NCBI GenBank assembly: GCA_025059205.1
Contig: JANXDS010000001.1
Span: 76,014 to 140,013 of the forward strand
Direction: 5' to 3'
Length of the DNA stretch: 64,000 nt
Origin: Aigarchaeota archaeon
GTDB lineage: Archaea > Thermoproteota > Nitrososphaeria_A > Caldarchaeales > Wolframiiraptoraceae
Shown: piece by piece, positions 18,424-27,709 of the stretch
Layout: each line of letters begins with the position of its first letter
Numbering within the stretch: the first letter of the stretch is position 1
Program-made: the position numbers and the translations under genes
Notes under the pieces: generated by a model
What the model was told of the DNA's origin: nothing
The model's input: only the letters and a program-made list of their open reading frames with translations
The model's database searches: none

Positions 18424-19299
18424 TTACGTCACCATGTTAAGCATCTCGATGAAGGCAAGTATCGCCGTGTAGTCAAGGTCACCGTACCGCTTTCCTGCTG
18501 CCCTATAGATCTGCTCAGCCAGCGACGCGAAAGGTAGGACGACGGAGAGTTCCTTAGCCGTCTCGTTTATTAGCCTAAGATCCTTCAACATCATATCGAG
18601 TGCAAAGGTCTTTTCGAACTTACCCTGCACCATCTTCGGCCCTTTCCTCTCGCTTAAACCTGTTCTGTACTCGGTCGAGTTAAGGACCTCTACGAAGGTG
18701 CTTGGGTCTACGCCCGAGGCCTTAGCCAACACAATACCCTCAGAGACCGCCACCGCGGTTAAGGCTACCTGCAGATTTAAGGCGAGCTTCAGGGCGTTCG
18801 CCTTTCCCTGACCGCCTATGTAGAATATCTTAGACGCGATGGCATCTAGCACGTCCTTGATGAGCTCATAGTGTTGCCCGCTACCGCTAACTAATATGAC
18901 GAGCATGCCACGCTCTGCCAGCGGAGGCCCGCCCATCACCGGTGTGTCCAGCATGACTATGCCTTCCCTCTCAAGTCTGCTAGATATCCTGACCGCCTCC
19001 GACGGGCTTATTGTGCTTACGTTCGCTACCACAACGTTCTTCCGAGCGCTGTAGGCTATGCCCCCTTCACCGAACATCACGCTTTCGAGTGCCACGGCAT
19101 CCTTCAGTATCGTCAGGACGACATCGGAGCTTTCCGCTACTTGCCTCGGTGTCTCCGCAACTTTTACGCCTATCGGTGCCAACTCCTCGACCTTACTCCT
19201 AGTCCTGTTAAACCCCAAAACTTCGTATCCTTTGCTGATTAACCTTCTAGCAATCGCGCTTCCCATCAATCCTGTTCCTATTATACCTACCTTACGCAT
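18424..19299 (-). CDS. NAD(P)-dependent oxidoreductase, 3-hydroxyisobutyrate/6-phosphogluconate dehydrogenase-like
   Basis: N-terminal GIIGTGLMGSAIARRL Rossmann motif. Size 291 aa. Confidence 0.7.
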   Translation of the reverse strand: MRKVGIIGTGLMGSAIARRLISKGYEVLGFNRTRSKVEELAPIGVKVAETPRQVAESSDVVLTILKDAVALESVMFGEGGIAYSARKNVVVANVSTISPSEAVRISSRLEREGIVMLDTPVMGGPPLAERGMLVILVSGSGQHYELIKDVLDAIASKIFYIGGQGKANALKLALNLQVALTAVAVSEGIVLAKASGVDPSTFVEVLNSTEYRTGLSERKGPKMVQGKFEKTFALDMMLKDLRLINETAKELSVVLPFASLAEQIYRAAGKRYGDLDYTAILAFIEMLNMVT

Positions 19300-20355: not shown

Positions 20356-20556
20356 CTAGGCGCTTCGGCTCGTCTTTTCCATCTCTTCCGATATGTGCCT
20401 CAGCAACCAGTCGTTCATGAATTGGCTGAAGCTCAAAGGTCTTCTACGTTCTTCGATCATCTTTTGGACTAGCTTTCGATGCAATCCTTCAAGATACTCG
20501 GCGACCTGCGGGTCAACGGTTATCGTCATCTTAACCTTAGCTGGAGGCATACCCAT
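20356..20556 (-). CDS. small ribbon-helix-helix (CopG/Arc/MetJ-like) protein, translationally coupled to the upstream capsid gene
   Basis: KVKMTITVDPQVAEYLEGLHRKL fits the RHH beta-strand plus helix. Its ATG overlaps the TGA of the capsid gene (TGATG on the minus strand). Confidence 0.45.
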   Translation of the reverse strand: MGMPPAKVKMTITVDPQVAEYLEGLHRKLVQKMIEERRRPLSFSQFMNDWLLRHISEEMEKTSRSA

Positions 20557-21524
20557 CAGATGCTTATGTCTATCCTTGCTACGGCTTTTGAACGTAGGAT
20601 ATCCATACCTATTCGCTCACTCGCCATGATGCCGTAGACTTCGTCCTTCATCGTCTCGTAGCTGCTTATTGTTAAATCTCGTCTAAGGAGCAGCACACCA
20701 GCCGCCTTCCTATCTATAACGAACGCCTTGTTATCTGGGACCGAGCCGCTATTGTCAACTATTAGTTCTAGGCCTAAGAAGTTGCCAAGCACGCCCCTCT
20801 GCTTATCAACGGCATCGCCGAAGTAAAAGCTGTGTATAAACCTGTCATCCTTCCAAAGGTCGGCCTCCCTAGACACGCTGACCAGCAGGCAGTCTGGATG
20901 GAACATCTCCTTTAGCACAGCCTTCCTCGCGTTGACAACGTCCTCGTAACTAAGCCTTCCGACGTTGATAGTAGTAATCTCCGAACCTCCAGCGAGTTCG
21001 TCTTCGGGTATCCGCAAGAACATTCCTATAACCTCTTCCGTCTCTAGTAGACCGACTGCTCTGCCAAGCTCCGCAGCCTGTCTTTCTAACACGCTCCACG
21101 GCGCATCTTCAAGAAACTTCCTCGTCCACTCGGCAGCCGCCCTTATCTCTAAGTCGGCCTTAACGTCTTGAACCTCATATTTCTCACCGGTAATCCAAAC
21201 CTGAGCCAGTTCCGCACTCCTATAAGCCCTCGCCTTCTTTGCCTTGGGGAACCTCACAACTGGGTCCGACGTTCTTATAACCTGAACTAGTCGCCTCGCT
21301 ATCAAGTTAGGCTGGGCCGCCTCGACTACTACGTCGTGCATTCTTGCTACTGCACCTAGCATACTGCTCGTTATCGACTCATAGCCAGACGGGAATAGCT
21401 CCGATATGCGTGCGAACACTGGGTTCGTCGAGAACTTTGGCAAGAGTTCGTTGAGTTCATCCCTAACCCTAGGGTCGCTGTAGAGAACCTCAAACCTTTT
21501 TGGCATTACGTCCTGCCAGCTCAT
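20556..21524 (-). CDS. HK97-fold major capsid protein-like (phage MCP / encapsulin superfamily)
   Basis: 322 aa. The C-terminal ~50 aa (AFVIDRKAAGVLLLRRDLTISSYETMKDEVYGIMASERIG) follows the hallmark pattern of HK97-fold shell proteins as recalled from T. maritima encapsulin and phage MCPs. Decoration-like, portal-like and protease-like neighbours support the call. Confidence 0.5.
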   Translation of the reverse strand: MSWQDVMPKRFEVLYSDPRVRDELNELLPKFSTNPVFARISELFPSGYESITSSMLGAVARMHDVVVEAAQPNLIARRLVQVIRTSDPVVRFPKAKKARAYRSAELAQVWITGEKYEVQDVKADLEIRAAAEWTRKFLEDAPWSVLERQAAELGRAVGLLETEEVIGMFLRIPEDELAGGSEITTINVGRLSYEDVVNARKAVLKEMFHPDCLLVSVSREADLWKDDRFIHSFYFGDAVDKQRGVLGNFLGLELIVDNSGSVPDNKAFVIDRKAAGVLLLRRDLTISSYETMKDEVYGIMASERIGMDILRSKAVARIDISI

Positions 21525-21525
21525 G

Positions 21526-21960
21526 TTACTTCACCACAAGGATTCTACCGGTATCGCCGGGAGCGGTGAATTTATCTAGGGCGATACCGAGCCTCCTGGC
21601 ATAGTATATCGTATACGTGCCGGTTCCACTTTCATTTACATCTTGATCTGTCAGCGGAAGTATGCGTCTCAAGCTATCCGCACCACACACGGCCTGGCCT
21701 ATGTTTATGGTTGCGCCTGCCACAACCTTCACTACACCAAATACACACACCGGTACGTAATCACCCTCCGAAGCGTTTTTCAAGGCTATCCCTAAACAAT
21801 TCGTAGGTGCCGTCGCCGGTGCTACAGTATCTTGGTCTACTAAGTATACGGGATCGCCTTTGGCTATCGTTGCAGCGGCCTTGAAGCTCAACACGACGCT
21901 CTCATCCCTTGGGGAAACTAAGTCCCCGACATCCGAATCAGGCCAAGCGTCCATTTCCAC
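21526..21960 (-). CDS. DUF2190-like phage head decoration/cement protein candidate
   Basis: 144 aa, Gly/Val-rich beta pattern (GDPVYLV...GDYVPVCVFGVVKVVAGATINIGQAV), immediately upstream of the MCP-like gene. Confidence 0.35.
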   Translation of the reverse strand: MEMDAWPDSDVGDLVSPRDESVVLSFKAAATIAKGDPVYLVDQDTVAPATAPTNCLGIALKNASEGDYVPVCVFGVVKVVAGATINIGQAVCGADSLRRILPLTDQDVNESGTGTYTIYYARRLGIALDKFTAPGDTGRILVVK

Positions 21961-22024
21961 TCAAAGCAATTTGTACAAATACTTTCCTAAAAACTATGAC
22001 ATAGATTTCGTAAATTACAGAACG

Positions 22025-22309
22025 TTAGATATTTTTTGCGTTTTCGCAGTTAAAGCTAACCCAGACATTCAATAATCTCTCTCCCTTCTCGGTAAGCTCG
22101 TAAATTTTTGCACCGGCTCTCGCCTGCTTATACGTCATTATGCCTTCGTTCACTGCATATTCTAGAATGCGCTTAAGCTTCTGATAATTGATACCCAGAA
22201 CGCGCCCAATTCTGTAAGGTGTGACACCACCGGCATTTGCCAACTCCAGTATTCTTACGAATTGTTCCAGTTCTCTCATACCAAAATAATTTTCACAAAA
22301 CTTGGTCAT
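22025..22309 (-). CDS. winged-helix DNA-binding protein (putative regulator of the capsid cassette)
   Basis: 94 aa with an HTH-like segment (TPYRIGRVLGINYQKLKRILEYAVNEG). It is first in the minus-strand operon and divergent from the portal-like gene. Confidence 0.45.
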   Translation of the reverse strand: MTKFCENYFGMRELEQFVRILELANAGGVTPYRIGRVLGINYQKLKRILEYAVNEGIMTYKQARAGAKIYELTEKGERLLNVWVSFNCENAKNI

Positions 22310-22396
22310 AAATTTTTTACATATATTTTCGTTCCACTTTCACGACACTTTGTACTATGCAATTTTTATCCATCTTGGTTTTAACATTTCTTTGAT

Positions 22397-23677
22397 ATGC
22401 TCCTGAAAAGGTTAACTGGAAAGGTACCCATTAGGCCTCTGACAGAGTATATGCAACACTCAACCACCCACGTGACATCCGGTACTCTCGAGTACCCAGC
22501 CGTACCGTTCCAGCACTACATAGACTACTATCTGAGCGATCCGCTCATCATGAGCGCGGCTGATTACATAGAACAGGCGGTCGCAGGTATGGGGGGTTAT
22601 ACAACGGCCGATTTTGATCCTGCAAAGGAGAGCATCGATGAATTTAATGCAAAGATAAACCTCGACGAACTTCACCTGAAAATCGCGAAGTGGACGACAC
22701 TCTGCGGCAACTTTTTCTTGGAGAGAGTTTACGACGTTTACGACGTCGAGGTATTGAGAGATCCATGGACATCTGCGAAAGTGGAACTCATAGTACCAGC
22801 AAAAGGTGCGGCGTTGGTCGATGTGAGACCTTTACCGCTTAGCTCTATAGTATCGGCAGCTCGAACGTCAGATGGAGAGATTTTATGGTACAATCGTTTG
22901 TACAGGGGTCAACAGAGCAAGCTATCATCTAAGCTAGTTGTTCACTATAAGTGGAACGTCGTTGACGAGCGTGCCTTCGGTACGGGCTGGTTAACCTCGA
23001 TGCTCACAGAAGGTGTAGGTTTCACGGTAAAAGGTAAAGTTAGAAAGCGTGAACCATTCGTCAAACTGAAGGAGAAGCTTGACGACGCCTCCATGAGACT
23101 TGCCATAAAGGCAATACCGAGGCACGTTTACGTCTTTCCCACGATGCCACTAGACATCCTAAAAGAGGCTCAATCGCAGCTAGAGAAGCTCGAGCCGGAG
23201 CAGGACTTCTTGACAAATAGCAAAGAATTTGACGTGAGGGAGGTAGGCGTCTCGTCTAGGGCCGTCTTGGAGTTCTTCTGGAAGCACATACTCGATCAGT
23301 TCATAATGGGCACGCAGACACACCACGTAAGGCTCTTTACAGTTCCTGGATTTACGGAAGCCTCTGCCAAGGTGGCAGACTCGGCTATGGAAAGGAAGCT
23401 CATGGCCGTTAGAAGATTCATCAAGCGTATTACGGAGCGCGAGATATTCGACGAGTACCTGAGAACCCACGGTATAGACCCCAGACGGGCAAACGTGAGG
23501 TGGAATTGGGGCCTGAAGGAAGAACCAAAGATAGAGATAGAGCATCTCATAAGGTTCGCTGAACTGCTGACACGCGGTGTGCAGGTTGTCAGGTTAGATG
23601 AGTTACGGGAGATGTTGAAACGACTAGGTTTCATGCTTACGGAGTCCGAGGAGCAGGGAAAGGAGGTGGCGGAATAA
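22397..23677 (+). CDS. portal-like protein candidate (no motif-level confirmation possible)
   Basis: 426 aa with an acidic C-terminus and no Walker A motif, so not a terminase. It lies immediately upstream of, and overlaps by 1 nt, a prohead-protease-like gene. The assignment is by position only. Confidence 0.3.
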   Translation: MLLKRLTGKVPIRPLTEYMQHSTTHVTSGTLEYPAVPFQHYIDYYLSDPLIMSAADYIEQAVAGMGGYTTADFDPAKESIDEFNAKINLDELHLKIAKWTTLCGNFFLERVYDVYDVEVLRDPWTSAKVELIVPAKGAALVDVRPLPLSSIVSAARTSDGEILWYNRLYRGQQSKLSSKLVVHYKWNVVDERAFGTGWLTSMLTEGVGFTVKGKVRKREPFVKLKEKLDDASMRLAIKAIPRHVYVFPTMPLDILKEAQSQLEKLEPEQDFLTNSKEFDVREVGVSSRAVLEFFWKHILDQFIMGTQTHHVRLFTVPGFTEASAKVADSAMERKLMAVRRFIKRITEREIFDEYLRTHGIDPRRANVRWNWGLKEEPKIEIEHLIRFAELLTRGVQVVRLDELREMLKRLGFMLTESEEQGKEVAE

Positions 23678-23678
23678 A

Positions 23679-24497
23679 ATGCCTTGGGAGGAAACTGAAG
23701 ATTACATAAGGAGCGGCCATAGAGACCCCGACGAATTCGAGCCCGAAAGCTTCAGGACGATAGATATCGATACCGAAAAAGGAATAAAAGCTGTAGTTGC
23801 CAAACCAAAGGGTAAAGATACGACGGAAGTACAGAGTTTTCTGTTCGCGAAGTCTAAAGGCTGGACGCTAGAGAAGGCAAAAGAGTGGTTTGAGAAACAC
23901 GCTGCTGGCGCAGAATCTTTCAACTGGGCCTCGGAAGTGTTCAGACTGTACAAGAATCTAGCGGAGTCTAGTGGCGCAAAGGTCTGGAAGGTCAAGGCGC
24001 TCCATGTAGGAAAGACTAGAAACAACACGCTCTTTACCGAGGATGAGTTGAGGCTTGCGGCTAGGAGTCTTGCCATGAGGCCCGTGAGCATAAACCACTC
24101 GGAGTTGCTGCCTTTTCCGGATAATGTAGTGATCACCGCGGAGTACGAGGACGGTGCTGTTGAAGCACTAGTCTGGATATCGGACCAGAACGTGAATCGG
24201 ATGATAGAGTCGGGCGAGATAAGTGGAGCAAGCGTTGAGTGGGTGGCGATGAGTGCGTTACCTGTCAACGGTATAAAACCAAGCGGTCTCGTCTTTACGG
24301 GTTTGGCGCTGCTCACAAAGAATGTCGAACCAGGTGATCCACTCGCAAGGATAATCAAGGAGGATGTTAGCATGACAAAAGTCGATCATGAACGCCTGAT
24401 GCGGAGCCCTGCCGCTAGGGCTATCCTATCGAAATATGGAAACCCGAAGTCGGTAACGCTACGCGGAAAAATTCTGAGAAGTGTTATGAAGGAATAA
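23679..24497 (+). CDS. HK97-family (S78-like) prohead protease candidate
   Basis: His (VSINHSE, ~aa 140) and Ser (EISGASVEW, ~aa 185) are spaced about 45 aa apart, as in prohead proteases. The gene lies between the portal-like gene and the tRNA. Confidence 0.4.
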   Translation: MPWEETEDYIRSGHRDPDEFEPESFRTIDIDTEKGIKAVVAKPKGKDTTEVQSFLFAKSKGWTLEKAKEWFEKHAAGAESFNWASEVFRLYKNLAESSGAKVWKVKALHVGKTRNNTLFTEDELRLAARSLAMRPVSINHSELLPFPDNVVITAEYEDGAVEALVWISDQNVNRMIESGEISGASVEWVAMSALPVNGIKPSGLVFTGLALLTKNVEPGDPLARIIKEDVSMTKVDHERLMRSPAARAILSKYGNPKSVTLRGKILRSVMKE

Positions 24498-24505
24498 TAG
24501 ATTGA

Positions 24506-24621
24506 TAGCCCGGGCCGGATTCGAACCGGCGTCCGCGGGGTTCTCCTCCGCCATGAGATCCAGAGCCCGCGATCCTTAGCCCAGCATCCGACCGAGCGTT
24601 TGGCCGCTAGACGACCGGGCT
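24506..24621 (-). tRNA. tRNA-Gln(CUG) with two predicted introns (D-arm region and anticodon loop), CCA not encoded
   Basis: Reverse complement shows acceptor AGCCCGG/CCGGGCT, T-arm GCCGG-TTCGAAT-CCGGC, anticodon stem GCGGG/CCCGC and loop CUCUGGA. The exons reconstruct the archaeal-type D-arm GTCTAGCGGCC+AAGGAT. The extra ~24 nt (plus 24578..24601) and ~19 nt (plus 24540..24558) are taken as introns. Confidence 0.6.
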
Positions 24622-24661: not shown

Positions 24662-25237
24662 CTACGTCATCCTCTTGAATATCGGTAAGATGCCCAGATA
24701 AACTACGTCATTACGCTCGCTACCTTCTAGGAGTATAGCAGCCTTCTTTTCGACCGTTCCGCCGGCCCTTGTGACGATTCTTTCCATAGCACTTAAAGTT
24801 TCTCCTGTGCTAACTATGTCATCTATTATGCCGACTCTCTTACCGGCAATTTTCTCCTTATATCTTCCGTCAATGCAAAGTACCAACTCCTTGCTAGAGG
24901 TTATTGGTTTATAGGACACAAATATGGGATCGTGCATGAATGGTTTAATCTCTTTTCTGCAGACAACATAAAACTTATGGTTCAACATGTTCGCCAGTTC
25001 GTGGACAAGCGCTATACCTTTGCTCTCGGTCGTCATGAGGACGTCGCAGGTCAATAGGTGTTTATAAAGCTCCTTCGCACAATGATCTATGAATTCCTTG
25101 TCGCCCAGGCTGTCAAAGTATGCGATCCATGTGTCTGGAGATACTTGAACGAGAGGCAACTTTCTTCTGAACCCTCTCACCTCCAGCTCATAGTATTCCT
25201 GCCCTTCGTATTTCAGCACGTACGTCAACCTACTCAC
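24662..25237 (-). CDS. type I phosphoribosyltransferase (adenine/purine PRTase-like)
   Basis: PRPP-binding motif VGIIDDIVSTGETL. Size 191 aa. Confidence 0.7.
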   Translation of the reverse strand: MSRLTYVLKYEGQEYYELEVRGFRRKLPLVQVSPDTWIAYFDSLGDKEFIDHCAKELYKHLLTCDVLMTTESKGIALVHELANMLNHKFYVVCRKEIKPFMHDPIFVSYKPITSSKELVLCIDGRYKEKIAGKRVGIIDDIVSTGETLSAMERIVTRAGGTVEKKAAILLEGSERNDVVYLGILPIFKRMT

Positions 25238-25415: not shown

Positions 25416-26615
25416 GTGCGGCTCTTGATGAACATTCGTTGCACGGTTTTAAGCACAGATATACCTGACTCTTGGAAGTACGCAGGCGACGGTTGGGGTT
25501 CGAGCCTACACAGAATATGCTCCAGAACCGGCTCGTTCCCTCCTGCTCTTGCCCACTATTTTGTGAAAAAATACTCTAGACGCGGTGACATAGTCCTCGA
25601 CCCATTTTCTGGAAAGGGTACGCTGCCCCTCGAAGCGTGCCTGAACGGAAGAGTTGGTATAGGCAACGACCTGGCGCCAGAGGCATACGTAATAACTAGG
25701 GCAAAAGTGAACCCGGTTACTTTGTATGATGTAAAGGAATGGATATGCAAGACGAGAGAAAAATGGAGCCCAGAAAGTTATGATGTCGACGAAGTGAGTG
25801 ATGACGTTCGTGTATTCTTCAGCAAATACACGCTCAGACAGATATTGGCGATAAGAGAAATACTGATGGACGACGATTCGGATCTAGCAAACTTTATAAA
25901 AGCTCTCATGTGTGGGATACTCCACGGTCCCACCAAGATACATTTAAGCATACCGTGTTCCCATGCTTTCTCGATGTCTCCGAAGTACATACGGCGTTTT
26001 GCAAAGAAGAACGGTCTAAAAAAACCCAGGAGGGACGTGCTAAAGTGCCTCCTTATGAAGGCTGAGAGGGTTTTGGCAGATGGTCTGCCAAAAGTTAGGG
26101 GCATGGCTACGATGGAAGATGCCAGGAAGTTAACGCTGGAGGACGAAAGCGTCAACCTGATAGTTACCTCTCCGCCATACTTTAACATGCAGACTTATGC
26201 TTGGGATAATTGGCTTAGGTTATGGTTTTTAGGATATGACTACTTAGACGTGAAAAATAAACTATTCCAGTCCGAATCGAAGCAAAAGTTCAAAGTCTTT
26301 ATGCTTGAATCCCTGAAAGAAATGTTCAGGGTATTAAAGAACAATTCAGCTTGCTTTGTAGTTGTTGGTGATGTGAAGCTAAACGGTTACTACATCAACA
26401 TGGCAGAGATGATAGCGCCGATAGCTGAAAGTGTAGGCTTTACTGTTGCTAGGTTGATTTCAGACTCCATACCGAAGTCGAATAAACACCTTATGTACAT
26501 AAAAGAGGAAGAAGGTGTAAGCCGAGAGAGGATACTAGAACTCCACAAAGGCAATCCAATATATAACGACGAACCCGTCGCTTGGGCTAAGGTAACCATG
26601 GAGGTTTTTGCATGA
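25416..26615 (+). CDS. DNA methyltransferase, N4-cytosine/N6-adenine family, alpha architecture
   Basis: AdoMet motif I VLDPFSGKGT near aa 60 and catalytic motif IV TSPPYF near aa 250, with the target-recognition region between them. Confidence 0.8.
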   Translation: MRLLMNIRCTVLSTDIPDSWKYAGDGWGSSLHRICSRTGSFPPALAHYFVKKYSRRGDIVLDPFSGKGTLPLEACLNGRVGIGNDLAPEAYVITRAKVNPVTLYDVKEWICKTREKWSPESYDVDEVSDDVRVFFSKYTLRQILAIREILMDDDSDLANFIKALMCGILHGPTKIHLSIPCSHAFSMSPKYIRRFAKKNGLKKPRRDVLKCLLMKAERVLADGLPKVRGMATMEDARKLTLEDESVNLIVTSPPYFNMQTYAWDNWLRLWFLGYDYLDVKNKLFQSESKQKFKVFMLESLKEMFRVLKNNSACFVVVGDVKLNGYYINMAEMIAPIAESVGFTVARLISDSIPKSNKHLMYIKEEEGVSRERILELHKGNPIYNDEPVAWAKVTMEVFA

Positions 26616-27709
26616 TTCTGGAAACACATGGGGATGTTTGCAGACTGGGCTACATGAGGCTCATAGCATGCCTTGCCGAGGAAGATACGCCCAAGAGTTT
26701 TGACTTCTTATCATCCATCCTTTACGACTTCGTACGTAACATTGGACCGCCACAGCTTCCGATAAAACCGATAGGTATAATCACCAGACCCGTAAACGCA
26801 AGAAACTACGTATCCGTTGCTGCAGAGATGAACGTATTAGATAAAAAAACTCAGACTTTAGGGGAAATTGGTAGGCTTTACATAAGGCTAGACTCCGCCA
26901 AGAAATTCCTCAACGAAAGTAAACAAATTACACATGAGGAACTGTTAACACTAAATCCGGTTGAGAAGGTGCTGCTATTTGCTGCCCTAATTTCTGCAGA
27001 TTTCCCATTTTTGTTGAACGTTATGATTTGGACTTTAGAGCACGAAGAGTTCACGAGAATGGAGGCGATGAATTACATGATGGAAGAGCTTTATCCTTCT
27101 GCTCTGAGGAGCATTATAACAAAGGTTGACGCGAAGAAGAGGAGTCTGATAGAAAGGGAGATCGCTGAAGCGGAAAAATTCAAGACGAAGAGATTAGGTC
27201 TAGAGAATAAGAGCGAATGGATAAAAAGTAGCCAGTATGCTAAGTACAGACACGCAGCTCCGCCTAGGTTGGAATGGCTCGTAGATTTAGGGATTCTCAA
27301 AAGAGCCGGTAGAGGCAAGTATTCTGTGGATGAGACTTTCGTCAAATGTAAAGAGATATTCGAAGATTACCTTAAGATCTCCACGAAAAAGCTCGAAGAA
27401 GAAATTATAAAGGATGTAGCTCCGCTCATGGTTCCAGGCTTGACAAAAGCTAGTAGACTTGACATGGCGAACATGATAATCGAGGCATATAGGAGGTTTG
27501 CGAGCGGGGGAAATGCAGTAAATCTCAGCATGTTAGAAAGGCTTTGTGTTTTCCTTCTGCTGGAAAGGAAGCTATTCTCAACGCCTAGCATGGTTCACGA
27601 CGTCTTCAACAACTTAGCCATTAGGTTTCCGGACAAGATGTTCGTACAAAGAGGAAAGACGGGCAGCGTAGAGGTAGCCATGATGAACATATCTCCGTCT
27701 GACATTTAA
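26612..27709 (+). CDS. hypothetical protein translationally coupled to the methyltransferase (candidate restriction endonuclease or specificity partner)
   Basis: Its start overlaps the methyltransferase stop (ATGA). 365 aa with no recognisable motif. Confidence 0.3.
   Translation: MILETHGDVCRLGYMRLIACLAEEDTPKSFDFLSSILYDFVRNIGPPQLPIKPIGIITRPVNARNYVSVAAEMNVLDKKTQTLGEIGRLYIRLDSAKKFLNESKQITHEELLTLNPVEKVLLFAALISADFPFLLNVMIWTLEHEEFTRMEAMNYMMEELYPSALRSIITKVDAKKRSLIEREIAEAEKFKTKRLGLENKSEWIKSSQYAKYRHAAPPRLEWLVDLGILKRAGRGKYSVDETFVKCKEIFEDYLKISTKKLEEEIIKDVAPLMVPGLTKASRLDMANMIIEAYRRFASGGNAVNLSMLERLCVFLLLERKLFSTPSMVHDVFNNLAIRFPDKMFVQRGKTGSVEVAMMNISPSDI

Follow-up and report, generated by a model that had tools for sequence, protein, structure and literature searches.

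The window analysed here, a stretch of 64,000 nucleotides from a MAG (metagenome-assembled genome) of the hot-spring archaeon Candidatus Terraquivivens (Caldarchaeales/Aigarchaeota), carries at positions 20356-24497 six closely packed open reading frames (ORFs), all present at the coordinates stated in an earlier note on this DNA. On the reverse strand, an operon led by a winged helix-turn-helix (wHTH) gene (22025-22309; 94-aa ORF) continues with a cement/decoration protein of the DUF2190 family (21526-21960; 144 aa), an HK97-family major capsid protein (MCP; 20556-21524; 322 aa) and a ribbon-helix-helix (RHH) protein (20356-20556; 66 aa). Divergent from it, the forward strand encodes a portal protein (22397-23677; 426 aa) and a prohead protease with an assemblin/T4 gp21/HK97 gp4-type fold (23679-24497; 272 aa), and both operons are separated by an intergenic control region with conserved A/T-rich TATA-like boxes (22310-22396). 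The packing is operon-like, with one base common to the MCP stop and RHH start codons, and one-base gaps between the cement and MCP genes and between the portal and protease genes. The GC content of the cassette (0.487, against 0.463 for the window) is host-like, as had been estimated before. Aldolase II, the cassette, a tRNA and a PRTase-MTase follow one another in the neighbourhood, and a type II methyltransferase (MTase) with an overlapping partner gene adjoins the Terraquivivens cassette.

The earlier note had recognized in these ORFs an HK97-type MCP, a DUF2190/cement protein, a portal, a prohead-protease fold, a wHTH and an RHH protein, and all six identities were borne out; the four structural genes are those of an MCP, a cement protein, a portal and a prohead protease. 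By its profile matches, the MCP is an HK97-family capsid protein: it narrowly missed the cut-off for Pfam Phage_capsid (E 8e-5; 22.5 bits, cut-off 24.2) and matched the PHROG major head protein (E 4.5e-6), while PF25209 and PF05065 were matched by 22 and 21, respectively, of the 36 members of its family, whose profile also matched the solved capsid proteins phage G gp27 (E 6e-15) and the HK97-like MCP of HFTV1 (E 4e-6). [quoted passage not shown] The portal of the cassette has no direct Pfam match; among 18 members of its family, five matched Portal_Mu (best E 2.8e-11) and two Phage_portal, and a Foldseek comparison of its AlphaFold model (pLDDT 73.7) with the PDB returned portals only among the best 50 matches, including those of HFTV1 (E 5e-8), RcGTA, HK97 and lambda. 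The protease has no Pfam match either, and the S78 similarity that the earlier note had looked for holds at the level of fold but not of sequence. Its N-terminal domain (approximately residues 1-75) is conserved, but it lacks the C-terminal ~130-180 aa present in all viral homologues (385-456 aa or more), a loss that could harm targeting or scaffolding. The end of the protease coincides exactly with the tRNA junction, and in some lineages the ORF extends into the tRNA.

The two small proteins are related to proteins of the same viruses. The RHH protein matched Pfam RHH_3 weakly (E 0.072), as did its profile the TraM RHH domain (E 0.12), and it is a homologue of the small protein that closes the head module of related viruses (cluster d29, matched by the window copy at E 3.9e-4 and by orthologues at values as low as 3.7e-6), with which it aligns (alignment A6) through a common K.K..T.D...PSFSQ motif. 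The wHTH protein matched Pfam HTH_45 (E 1.2e-5) and small wHTH families of related viruses, namely c5 (60 loci; E 1e-4 to 4e-4) and the PadR-like c21. Its true start is probably Met11 at 22279, which gives 84 aa, because the upstream ATG lacks conservation in two lineages (L007 and L009) and gene calls for the orthologues range from 81 to 84 aa. Within the control region, the blocks ATAAATTTTTTACAT, AATTTTTAT and TTAACATT are invariant or almost so across seven aligned lineages, in contrast to the synonymous sites of the adjacent genes (dS ~1), and positions 22305-22320 form an AT-rich palindrome. Region 22310-22396 is thus a putative promoter/operator, as judged from these sequence features.

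The tRNA (24506-24621, reverse strand), whose 3' end points towards the cassette and lies 8 nt from the stop codon of the protease gene, folds into a real cloverleaf with two intron-like insertions, of 23 nt in the D-loop and 19 nt in the anticodon loop. It went undetected by ARAGORN with default settings and by Rfam at the gathering threshold (partial tRNA match, 21.8 bits), and ARAGORN reported tRNA-Gln(CUG) once both inserts were removed, the Gln(CUG) call appearing only without the 19-nt intron; an identity as tRNA-Gln(CUG) is therefore probable, in keeping with the intron-containing tRNA-Gln proposed previously. An orthologous tRNA occupies the identical junction in four lineages (L007, L009, L010 and L013), and no att-like repeat of it was found elsewhere within the 64-kb window, which agrees with the lack of att duplication noted by eye. 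The flanks were searched with Pfam tables for the source contig and syntenic loci and with 168 family-specific HMMs from related viral loci, covering ~72 kb of the 597-kb contig. No terminase, tail, integrase or replication genes were found in the window or in ~5 kb to its left and ~3 kb to its right, the ~25 kb left and ~43 kb right of the cassette containing cellular genes only; the head-only content was thereby upheld, and a full provirus contiguous outside the window was likewise not found in those ~8 kb. PADLOC defence models gave no match to the head proteins.

The evidence base consists of MAGs and metagenome contigs. Comparison with related lineages placed the same cassette at the same site in no fewer than five other lineages of species rank; NCBI MAGs of T. 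tengchongensis, T. yellowstonensis, T. ruidianensis and others, as well as metagenome contigs (L001-L004), have all six genes. For 10 pairs among five intact Terraquivivens lineages (dS 0.9-1.4, near saturation, which makes the ratios approximate, although the sister clade at lower dS agrees), median dN/dS was 0.045 for the MCP, 0.056 for the wHTH and the portal, 0.073 for the RHH protein, 0.077 for the cement protein and 0.094 for the protease. Flanking housekeeping genes gave 0.023-0.059 against this range of 0.045-0.094, and by this measure the cassette genes are under purifying selection about as strong as that acting on their neighbours. Pairwise protein distances of cassette and flanks correlate with r=0.95, which together with the same site in all lineages points to vertical descent and not to repeated integration; on these sequence comparisons, we regard the immobility of the cassette and its co-divergence with the chromosome as established. 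One lineage (L012) serves as an internal control: its flanks are intact, but an in-frame stop interrupts the MCP, and frameshifts disrupt the portal, protease, cement and RHH genes; the cassette is dispensable, since its function has been lost there.

A sister clade, with MCPs 60-64% identical, shows the same inverted head-only layout, and its dN/dS of 0.03-0.18 at unsaturated dS (0.07-0.78) indicates purifying selection. Within this clade, cassettes that share 90-94% DNA identity are followed by differing DNA straight after the protease stop. At one of these loci a ParE toxin-antitoxin pair, a type I restriction-modification (R-M) system and, ~10 kb off, an integrase gene were observed. Among the next relatives (MCP identity 47-50% or lower) are complete, uncultivated tailed viruses of Bathyarchaeia and Nitrososphaeria, and 147 contigs in IMG/VR encode related MCPs. 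These viruses share with the cassette a homologous MCP (33-47% identity), cement protein, protease, portal, small wHTH and RHH, as well as the PROT-CEM-MCP core order, and all six cassette genes are of viral descent. However, the viruses are complete, with an integrase, TerL (Terminase_6N/6C), a PROT-CEM-MCP-PORTAL module and tube, sheath-like and tail genes; in the cassette, unlike in them, portal-protease diverges from wHTH-cement-MCP-RHH, and the protease has 272 aa against at least 385-456 aa.

The reading that we favour, on balance and with clear reserve, is that the cassette is a head-morphogenesis module that derives from a tailed virus, has been immobilised, passes on vertically and still functions. 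In an ancestor of Candidatus Terraquivivens, the head module of an archaeal Caudoviricetes, from the family with complete members in Bathyarchaeia and Nitrososphaeria, would have become fixed in the chromosome beside tRNA-Gln, with loss of terminase, tail, integrase and att sites, followed by vertical inheritance under selection for function. The divergent operons, presumably controlled by the cassette's own wHTH and RHH proteins once switched on, would yield an HK97-type procapsid built from the MCP with the portal as nucleator, matured by the assemblin-fold protease and stabilised by the cement protein, the product being a tail-less shell with a portal. This shell most likely works with components supplied in trans, because the portal, a docking ring for terminase and tail, is conserved and yet no packaging ATPase lies nearby. 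As to its role, we prefer the speculation that the shell interferes with related tailed viruses that infect the cell, or exploits them, for instance through decoy procapsids that would capture viral terminase-DNA complexes or poison virus assembly. Defence-type genes do neighbour the cassettes (type II MTase in Terraquivivens; ParE and type I R-M in the sister clade), but R-M genes often adjoin tRNAs anyway, so the association is weak. The cellular role may be interference with viruses, participation in a system like a gene transfer agent (GTA) whose other parts lie at a distance, or a compartment. Given that the head genes are fixed in the chromosome and kept with the stringency of housekeeping genes, the cell probably still puts this viral capsid to a use of its own. 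A domesticated capsid, one of the options raised in the earlier note, is the one favoured by the evidence, its GTA-like and encapsulin-like variants being weaker.

The GTA-like variant, in which terminase, connector and tail genes would lie elsewhere in the genome and particles would package host DNA, is unlikely but carries some weight. The cassette bears the signature of GTAs, being vertically inherited and under purifying selection and having no integrase, att or replication genes; portal conservation makes most sense if DNA is packaged, and split layouts exist in the family, as homologous head and tail modules in Bathyarchaeia genomes are separated by MFS transporter, cation efflux and OMP decarboxylase genes. 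Against it, virus-derived HMMs revealed no TerL, connector, sheath, tube or other tail homologues within +/-10 kb of seven Terraquivivens loci, nor in the window and ~8 kb beyond, and the portal lacks an adjoining TerL in six Terraquivivens lineages and the sister clade, whereas described GTAs such as RcGTA keep TerL beside the portal in their main cluster. The same signature is seen in immobilised Caudovirales-derived elements of Thaumarchaeota/Aigarchaeota that have been proposed to be GTA-like (PMC6563490, PMC5797428).

We consider it very unlikely that the cassette is an inert, not yet decayed leftover of an old provirus with no present function. The locus adjoins a tRNA 3' end, a classic integration site, the protease is cut off exactly at the tRNA junction with its ORF entering the tRNA in some lineages, terminase, tail and integrase genes are gone, and L012 has decayed outright. 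Nevertheless, six genes are intact in five lineages at dS ~1 with dN/dS matching that of housekeeping neighbours, the promoter region is conserved, the sister clade bears the same selection signal, and L012 itself shows how fast the cassette breaks once selection lapses. The dN/dS values in both clades largely refute this reading, so that the tailed-provirus remnant formerly suggested holds as to origin and not as to present state.

More doubtful still is an encapsulin-like compartment, that is, an HK97-fold shell enclosing a cellular enzyme or storing a substrate: a shell protein of the HK97 family, accompanied by neither packaging nor tail genes, is indeed chromosomal, vertically inherited and under selection, but selection has also retained the portal, the prohead protease and the cement protein, no cargo-type gene is visible in the operons, whose two extra genes encode DNA-binding proteins of viral descent, and the profile of the MCP family hits capsid proteins of viruses. 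Evolution in both directions between small HK97 viruses and encapsulins is argued for in a recent preprint (bioRxiv 10.1101/2025.06.18.659913). Least credible for the present locus is that it still moves as a capsid-forming satellite, an archaeal counterpart of the capsid-forming phage-inducible chromosomal islands (cf-PICIs), making its own heads and borrowing terminase and tails from a helper virus, since, even though MCP, portal, protease and decoration genes without TerL or tails are the content of such satellites and sister-clade cassettes with 90-94% DNA identity are flanked by different DNA, one with an integrase ~10 kb away, the Terraquivivens cassette lacks an integrase, att repeats, replication genes and a small terminase and occupies one constant site with its divergence following that of the flanks (r=0.95). 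An ancestral origin from a capsid-forming satellite may nonetheless apply.

Among known systems, encapsulins resemble the cassette in having an HK97-fold shell gene in a cellular chromosome and neither packaging nor tail genes; their systems pair the shell with cargo enzymes and are not known to have a portal, maturation protease or cement protein, whereas the cassette has all three and no visible cargo. The cf-PICIs and other capsid-encoding satellites resemble it in their head-only MCP, portal and protease genes without TerL and tails, but are mobile, with integrase, att, replication genes and helper-sensing regulators, and often carry a small terminase and head-tail adaptors, all of them absent from the vertically inherited cassette. 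GTAs (RcGTA and relatives; the Methanococcus voltae VTA) are likewise virus-derived, fixed in the chromosome, vertically inherited, under purifying selection and devoid of replication and integration genes, and the portal of RcGTA ranks with the best structural matches to the modelled cassette portal; they possess TerL and tails and package host DNA, and these defining genes are missing within -25/+43 kb of the cassette. The earlier note had added interest to the locus by placing it in a lineage without known tailed viruses, which is incorrect, as tailed proviruses and viral MAGs have been reported for Caldarchaeales (Aigarchaeota); the argument is weakened because Caudoviricetes-derived elements and viral MAGs of Aigarchaeota and Thaumarchaeota were already described (PMC6563490, PMC5797428, PMC10547907, bioRxiv 10.1101/2025.08.23.671958). 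Among these, Nvie-Pro1, NCAV2-Pro1 and CalSub-Pro (PMC6563490, PMC5797428) come from the same host class (Nitrososphaeria including Aigarchaeota) and, like the cassette, lack integrase, att and replication genes while their morphogenesis genes appear intact; domestication, as GTA-like or killer particles, was proposed for them instead of decay (PMC6563490, PMC5797428). CalSub-Pro has a protease that is S78 by sequence, and in Nvie-Pro1 and NCAV2-Pro1 the protease forms one protein with the MCP; that of the cassette is separate, of assemblin fold and without Pfam match. Finally, these three elements retain TerL and full head and tail sets and were described from single genomes with no selection analysis, whereas the cassette comprises head genes only and is characterized by genus-wide synteny, measured selection and one decayed lineage.

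The interval 20356-24497 comprises six tightly packed ORFs with host-like GC, arranged in two divergent operons, and the gene calls that the earlier note had made for this cassette proved correct when assessed with Pfam, PHROG and family profiles and with predicted structures. The minus strand carries the genes for a wHTH protein (22025-22309), a cement protein (21526-21960), the major capsid protein (MCP; 20556-21524) and an RHH protein (20356-20556), the start of the latter overlapping the capsid stop by one base; the plus strand carries a portal gene (22397-23677; 426 aa) and, one base after it, a protease gene (23679-24497; 272 aa). Eight bases beyond the protease gene lies the 3' end of a tRNA gene (24506-24621, minus strand), which was missed by ARAGORN under default settings and by Rfam at the gathering threshold. 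A permissive Rfam scan recovered part of it, and ARAGORN assigned it to tRNA-Gln(CUG) once two intron-like insertions, of 23 nt in the D-loop and ~19 nt in the anticodon loop, were taken out manually; folding the unspliced sequence by free energy gave no useful signal (z = -0.4), and the orthologues in loci L007, L009, L010 and L013 measure 93-96 nt and received an ambiguous, 4-base anticodon from ARAGORN. No att duplication had been seen by eye, in agreement with a direct-repeat search over 14-32 kb and with a blastn-short search for a second copy of the tRNA end, in which the tRNA region was compared with the entire window; both returned only chance matches of ≤14 nt.

By sequence and profile similarity, the MCP belongs to the HK97 family of major capsid proteins. 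Its score against PF05065 (Phage_capsid) is 22.5 bits, just under the 24.2-bit cut-off, and it matches PHROG major head protein families; among family members, PF25209 is matched by 22/36 and PF05065 by 21/36, and the family profile retrieves, from solved capsid proteins, the phage G gp27 MCP (E 6e-15) and the HK97-like MCP of Haloferax tailed virus 1 (HFTV1; E 4e-6). The cement protein is identified by its score against PF09956 (DUF2190; 41.5 bits, above the cut-off of 24) and by its position, the gene being directly upstream of the MCP gene in the window and in 113 of 128 related loci. In the INPHARED phage collection, only head proteins of Enterococcus and Streptococcus phages were retrieved, at 30% coverage, which means that no close isolates were present.

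Since the family profiles of the portal and the protease found no match among PDB sequences, the fold of both proteins had to be predicted. The 426-aa protein itself has no Pfam match, and Portal_Mu is matched by 5/18 of its homologues. Its AlphaFold model (pLDDT 73.7) points to a tailed-virus portal fold, as all 50 of the top 50 Foldseek matches in the PDB are portal proteins, led by those of HFTV1, RcGTA and HK97 (best match E 5e-8, probability 1.00; TM 0.47-0.50). The 272-aa protein is likewise predicted to adopt an assemblin-like fold (assemblin / HK97 gp4 / T4 gp21), with His140 and Ser185, 45 residues apart, as the candidate catalytic His/Ser; neither these residues nor His14 and Glu123 vary among 40 homologues. 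The S78 similarity proposed in the earlier note thus stands at the level of the fold, which is assemblin-type, and fails at the level of sequence: the window protease has no Pfam or PHROG match at all, and PF04586 (MEROPS S78) is matched by 0/40 homologues. The protease measures 259-287 aa in the cassettes versus 385-456 aa in relatives. In the cassettes its end coincides with the tRNA junction, and some lineages have an ORF that continues into the tRNA; the short form fits a deletion that took out whatever lay between the protease domain and a former attachment site at the tRNA. Conservation across the family is highest in residues 1-75 (window 23679-23900; alignment A2), an N-terminal domain with the motif PWE..YIRSGHR...GIKAV.GKPKG...WTLEKAKEWF, whose sole precomputed annotation is PF27290 YonD_N; in the viral forms of 385-456 aa, a related segment is found again on the C-terminal side of the protease domain.

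The surroundings of the cassette are cellular. To the left are genes for DNA polymerase B, branched-chain amino-acid metabolism, an ECF transporter, exosome and proteasome subunits, and an aldolase; to the right are a PRTase, a type II methyltransferase with an overlapping 365-aa partner, an acyl-CoA dehydrogenase, hydrogenase maturation proteins, a NiFe hydrogenase and a thermosome subunit. A survey of precomputed Pfam tables for the source contig and syntenic loci, covering the window, ~5 kb to its left and ~3 kb to its right, revealed no terminase, tail, integrase or replication genes. All stop-to-stop ORFs in the window and at six Terraquivivens loci (the same chromosomal site in relatives of the host) were searched with HMMs of 168 ORF clusters from related loci; no match was obtained for TerL, for integrase or for tail families, sheath-like and tube proteins included, and the tail clusters c7, c11, c12 and c14 had no homologue. 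The only matches bearing on the cassette were the RHH and wHTH proteins, the remainder being generic, cellular-type flanking genes (type II methyltransferase, ABC-transporter ATPases). The Pfam tables and an HMM of the related-virus TerL gave no TerL match in the window, in the ~8 kb beyond it or within ±10 kb of the Terraquivivens loci. The absence of a packaging ATPase and of tail, replication and integrase genes, first noticed by reading the sequence, therefore extends over the window and ~8 kb beyond.

The closest relatives of the host are Candidatus Terraquivivens tengchongensis, T. yellowstonensis and T. ruidianensis, members of a genus of thermophilic Caldarchaeales, formerly Aigarchaeota (PMC9246946). 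The comparison with related strains suggested in the earlier note was carried out and recovered the same six genes at the same site in Terraquivivens lineages, flanked by the same aldolase and tRNA/PRTase genes; the copies come from four metagenome contigs (JGI and ENA), two NCBI MAGs and five GTDB species representatives. Among ten pairs drawn from five intact lineages, median dN/dS was 0.045 for the MCP, 0.077 for the cement protein, 0.056 for the wHTH protein, 0.056 for the portal, 0.094 for the protease and 0.073 for the RHH protein; seven flanking genes gave 0.023-0.059, with dS of ~0.9-1.4. Pairwise protein distances of cassette and flanks are strongly correlated (r=0.95), indicating that the cassette diverged with the chromosome rather than by repeated arrival. 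In the 87-bp divergent intergenic region, A/T-rich boxes are near-invariant while neighbouring synonymous sites are almost saturated. One lineage (L012; uncultured archaeon S1_Bin_METABAT__43_1, CALKCF010000007.1, 7000-11200) has an in-frame stop in the MCP gene and frameshifts that break the portal, protease, cement and RHH genes, with every flanking gene remaining a single full-length match; the cassette thus decays once selection lapses, and its intact copies elsewhere are not a product of inertia. Regarding local gene content, in T. ruidianensis (L013 11463-12848) a 461-aa gene, whose product is membrane glycosyltransferase-like as judged from sequence, is inserted between the RHH and aldolase genes, and a 291-aa NAD-binding dehydrogenase gene of the window (18424-19299) is absent from the metagenome contig L001.

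The MCP family comprises at least 127 matches at E ≤ 0.001 in a search that scored 8,000 pre-filtered candidates, and a relative is found on 147 IMG/VR contigs. Three groups are distinguished by identity to the window MCP: the Terraquivivens cassettes (80-95%), a sister clade (60-64%), and a broad group of MAGs and viral contigs, mostly from Bathyarchaeia (33-50%). After clustering the ORFs of 128 loci, the viral contigs were seen to follow the order (integrase ...) (TerL) protease-cement-MCP-(wHTH)-portal, or portal-protease-cement-MCP, and their head genes are followed by a small protein (cluster c9) and an RHH protein, and then by a tail module with a Phage_tube_2 protein. According to Pfam, some of these contigs encode tyrosine integrases and TerL (Terminase_6N/6C), a true TerL being present in only four IMG/VR contigs, with TerL sequences that are 91-93% identical. 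The RHH fold of the 66-aa protein is weakly supported by general profiles (Pfam E 0.07; TraM RHH E 0.12), and the cluster HMM from related viruses matches it with E down to 3.7e-6 across the window and six Terraquivivens loci (alignment A6); the wHTH protein matches related-virus HMMs at E ~1e-4. Taken together, the structural matches, the viral counterparts of the RHH and wHTH proteins and the lack of a match to any other viral family indicate that all six cassette genes are of viral descent and that the rest of the virus is gone.

Among the Bathyarchaeia relatives, two conserved proteins, A4 (469 aa, upstream of the tube gene) and A5 (331 aa), were considered as TerL and discarded, having no terminase match in Pfam, PHROGs or the PDB; both look like tail proteins. 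Ten other large ORFs near these relatives were all cellular (CysRS, NrdD, an MFS transporter, a histidine kinase and others). In six Bathyarchaeia MAG loci (L016, L017, L019, L020, L024 and L030), homologous portal, head and tail modules are parted by cellular genes, namely an MFS transporter, a cation-efflux protein and OMP decarboxylase, with CysRS nearby; this split layout is shared by several species-level genomes, with no terminase in the ±10 kb around it, and could correspond to an old, domesticated head-tail system. A third context was observed in Nitrososphaeria archaeon JZ2_bin.220247 (L014), where collinear genes for wHTH, portal (349 aa), protease, cement protein and MCP (50% identity) lie between ABC-transporter and MFS genes, the protease being short (218 aa) and overlapping the portal ORF; no tail genes were seen on this contig. 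Head modules of this archaeal type also appear on two contigs assigned to bacterial MAGs (L021 and L044; Pirellulales, Desulfobacterales), probably as a result of mis-binning.

The sister clade (L006, L128, L129 and L130) provides a second setting in which the head-only unit is under selection. As in the window, portal-protease are divergent from cement-MCP; unlike in the window, the protease is full-length (451-456 aa). The cassettes share 90-94% DNA identity over ~3.9 kb, and dN/dS is 0.03-0.18 with unsaturated dS. The head-only unit therefore either predates Terraquivivens or moved as a unit. DNA similarity ends at the protease stop codon, beyond which two contigs carry polysaccharide-synthesis genes and L129/L130 carry a ParE toxin-antitoxin pair, a type I restriction-modification system and an integrase ~10 kb away, a pattern suggestive of a hot spot for insertion or of an integrative island of larger size.

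Several observations concern possible defence functions. None of the head proteins matched PADLOC defence models. The cassette wHTH protein has weak matches to the Pfam family 'wHTH-PRTase associated' (E 0.005) and to PADLOC PRTase_III-A / WH_III-A (E ~1e-3), and the PRTase gene on the far side of the tRNA (24662-25237) weakly matches the Shosta toxin ShosT in PADLOC (E 3e-5), which may be coincidence or functional pairing. At 25416-27709, a 399-aa type II N6/N4 DNA methyltransferase overlaps by 4 nt the 365-aa protein, which has no Pfam or PADLOC match; the two are probably a restriction-modification pair, lie in a region of lower GC (0.43-0.45) and are kept in all Terraquivivens loci with dN/dS of ~0.05.

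These data best support a head-morphogenesis module that is immobilised, passed on vertically and still functional. Judging from the roles of these families in tailed viruses, the portal would nucleate the shell, the protease would mature it and the cement protein would stabilise it, under the control of the wHTH and RHH proteins. As cellular use, we favour decoy or interfering procapsids that would interact with infecting relatives, given that the portal is conserved without a nearby packaging motor and that restriction-modification-type genes lie beside the locus in both clades. The main rival is a split GTA-like system, for which speak structural genes that are virus-derived, immobile, vertically inherited and under purifying selection; however, the TerL and tail genes of such a system were not found within the ~72 kb inspected. 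A capsid-forming satellite (cf-PICI-like) would likewise encode an MCP, a portal and a protease of its own and lack TerL and tails, as is the case here, but the locus has no integrase, replication gene or att repeat, and the cassette and its flanks co-diverge. An encapsulin system is at odds with the maintenance under selection of portal, protease and cement protein, and with operons that hold no enzyme-like cargo gene. The co-divergence with the flanks, with neither integrase nor att, also argues strongly against an element currently mobile at its present locus, and an integrated Caudoviricetes provirus is difficult to reconcile with a locus where four structural and two small DNA-binding genes remain and att, integrase, TerL and tail are missing. 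A decaying remnant is largely refuted by the intact genes with low dN/dS and by the contrast with L012.

Beyond the functional head-morphogenesis module itself, we advance only tentatively, and as a rather unlikely proposal, that the cassette represents a new class: a tail-less, terminase-less, portal-bearing HK97 capsid kept for its own benefit by an archaeal genus and, independently, by its sister clade. It could serve as a decoy against related tailed viruses or poison their assembly, or it could equally be the immobilised descendant of an archaeal capsid-forming satellite; to our knowledge, no chromosomal head-only module that is inherited vertically has been assigned either function in any organism.

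The earlier remark that tailed viruses are not known for this lineage does not apply, as Caldarchaeales elements and families have been described (PMC10547907; PMC6563490; 10.1101/2025.08.23.671958). These include Mu-like prophages in Caldarchaeales MAGs (PMC10547907) and four families of head-tailed viruses proposed in a 2025 preprint, with capsid and tail genes shared with hosts (10.1101/2025.08.23.671958). Further, Krupovic et al. 2019 (PMC6563490) and Abby et al. 2018 (PMC5797428) reported elements derived from Caudovirales in Nitrososphaera, in Nitrosocaldus and in Caldiarchaeum, an aigarchaeon; these lack an integrase, att sites and replication genes, and a GTA-like domestication was suggested for them. 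Each was observed in a single genome and has TerL together with a full set of tail genes, whereas the present cassette lacks both and spans several species; we encountered no published account of a cassette reduced to head genes or of the selection acting on it. Multi-species synteny and quantified selection render measurable what had been speculation on domesticated Caudoviricetes-derived elements in Nitrososphaeria, and thermophilic Caldarchaeales join the lineages long associated with HK97-type viruses. L012 offers a natural loss-of-function lineage for comparison, and with only four structural genes to co-express, particle assembly and cryo-EM become straightforward.

Domesticated parts of tailed viruses comprise tails (tailocins and contractile injection systems), whole particles (GTAs) and the bare shell (encapsulins). 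A procapsid kit of portal, protease, shell and cement protein, with housekeeping-like conservation and no motor or tail nearby, falls outside the tailocin, GTA and encapsulin categories, and suggests that a portal-bearing capsid as such is of use to the cell.
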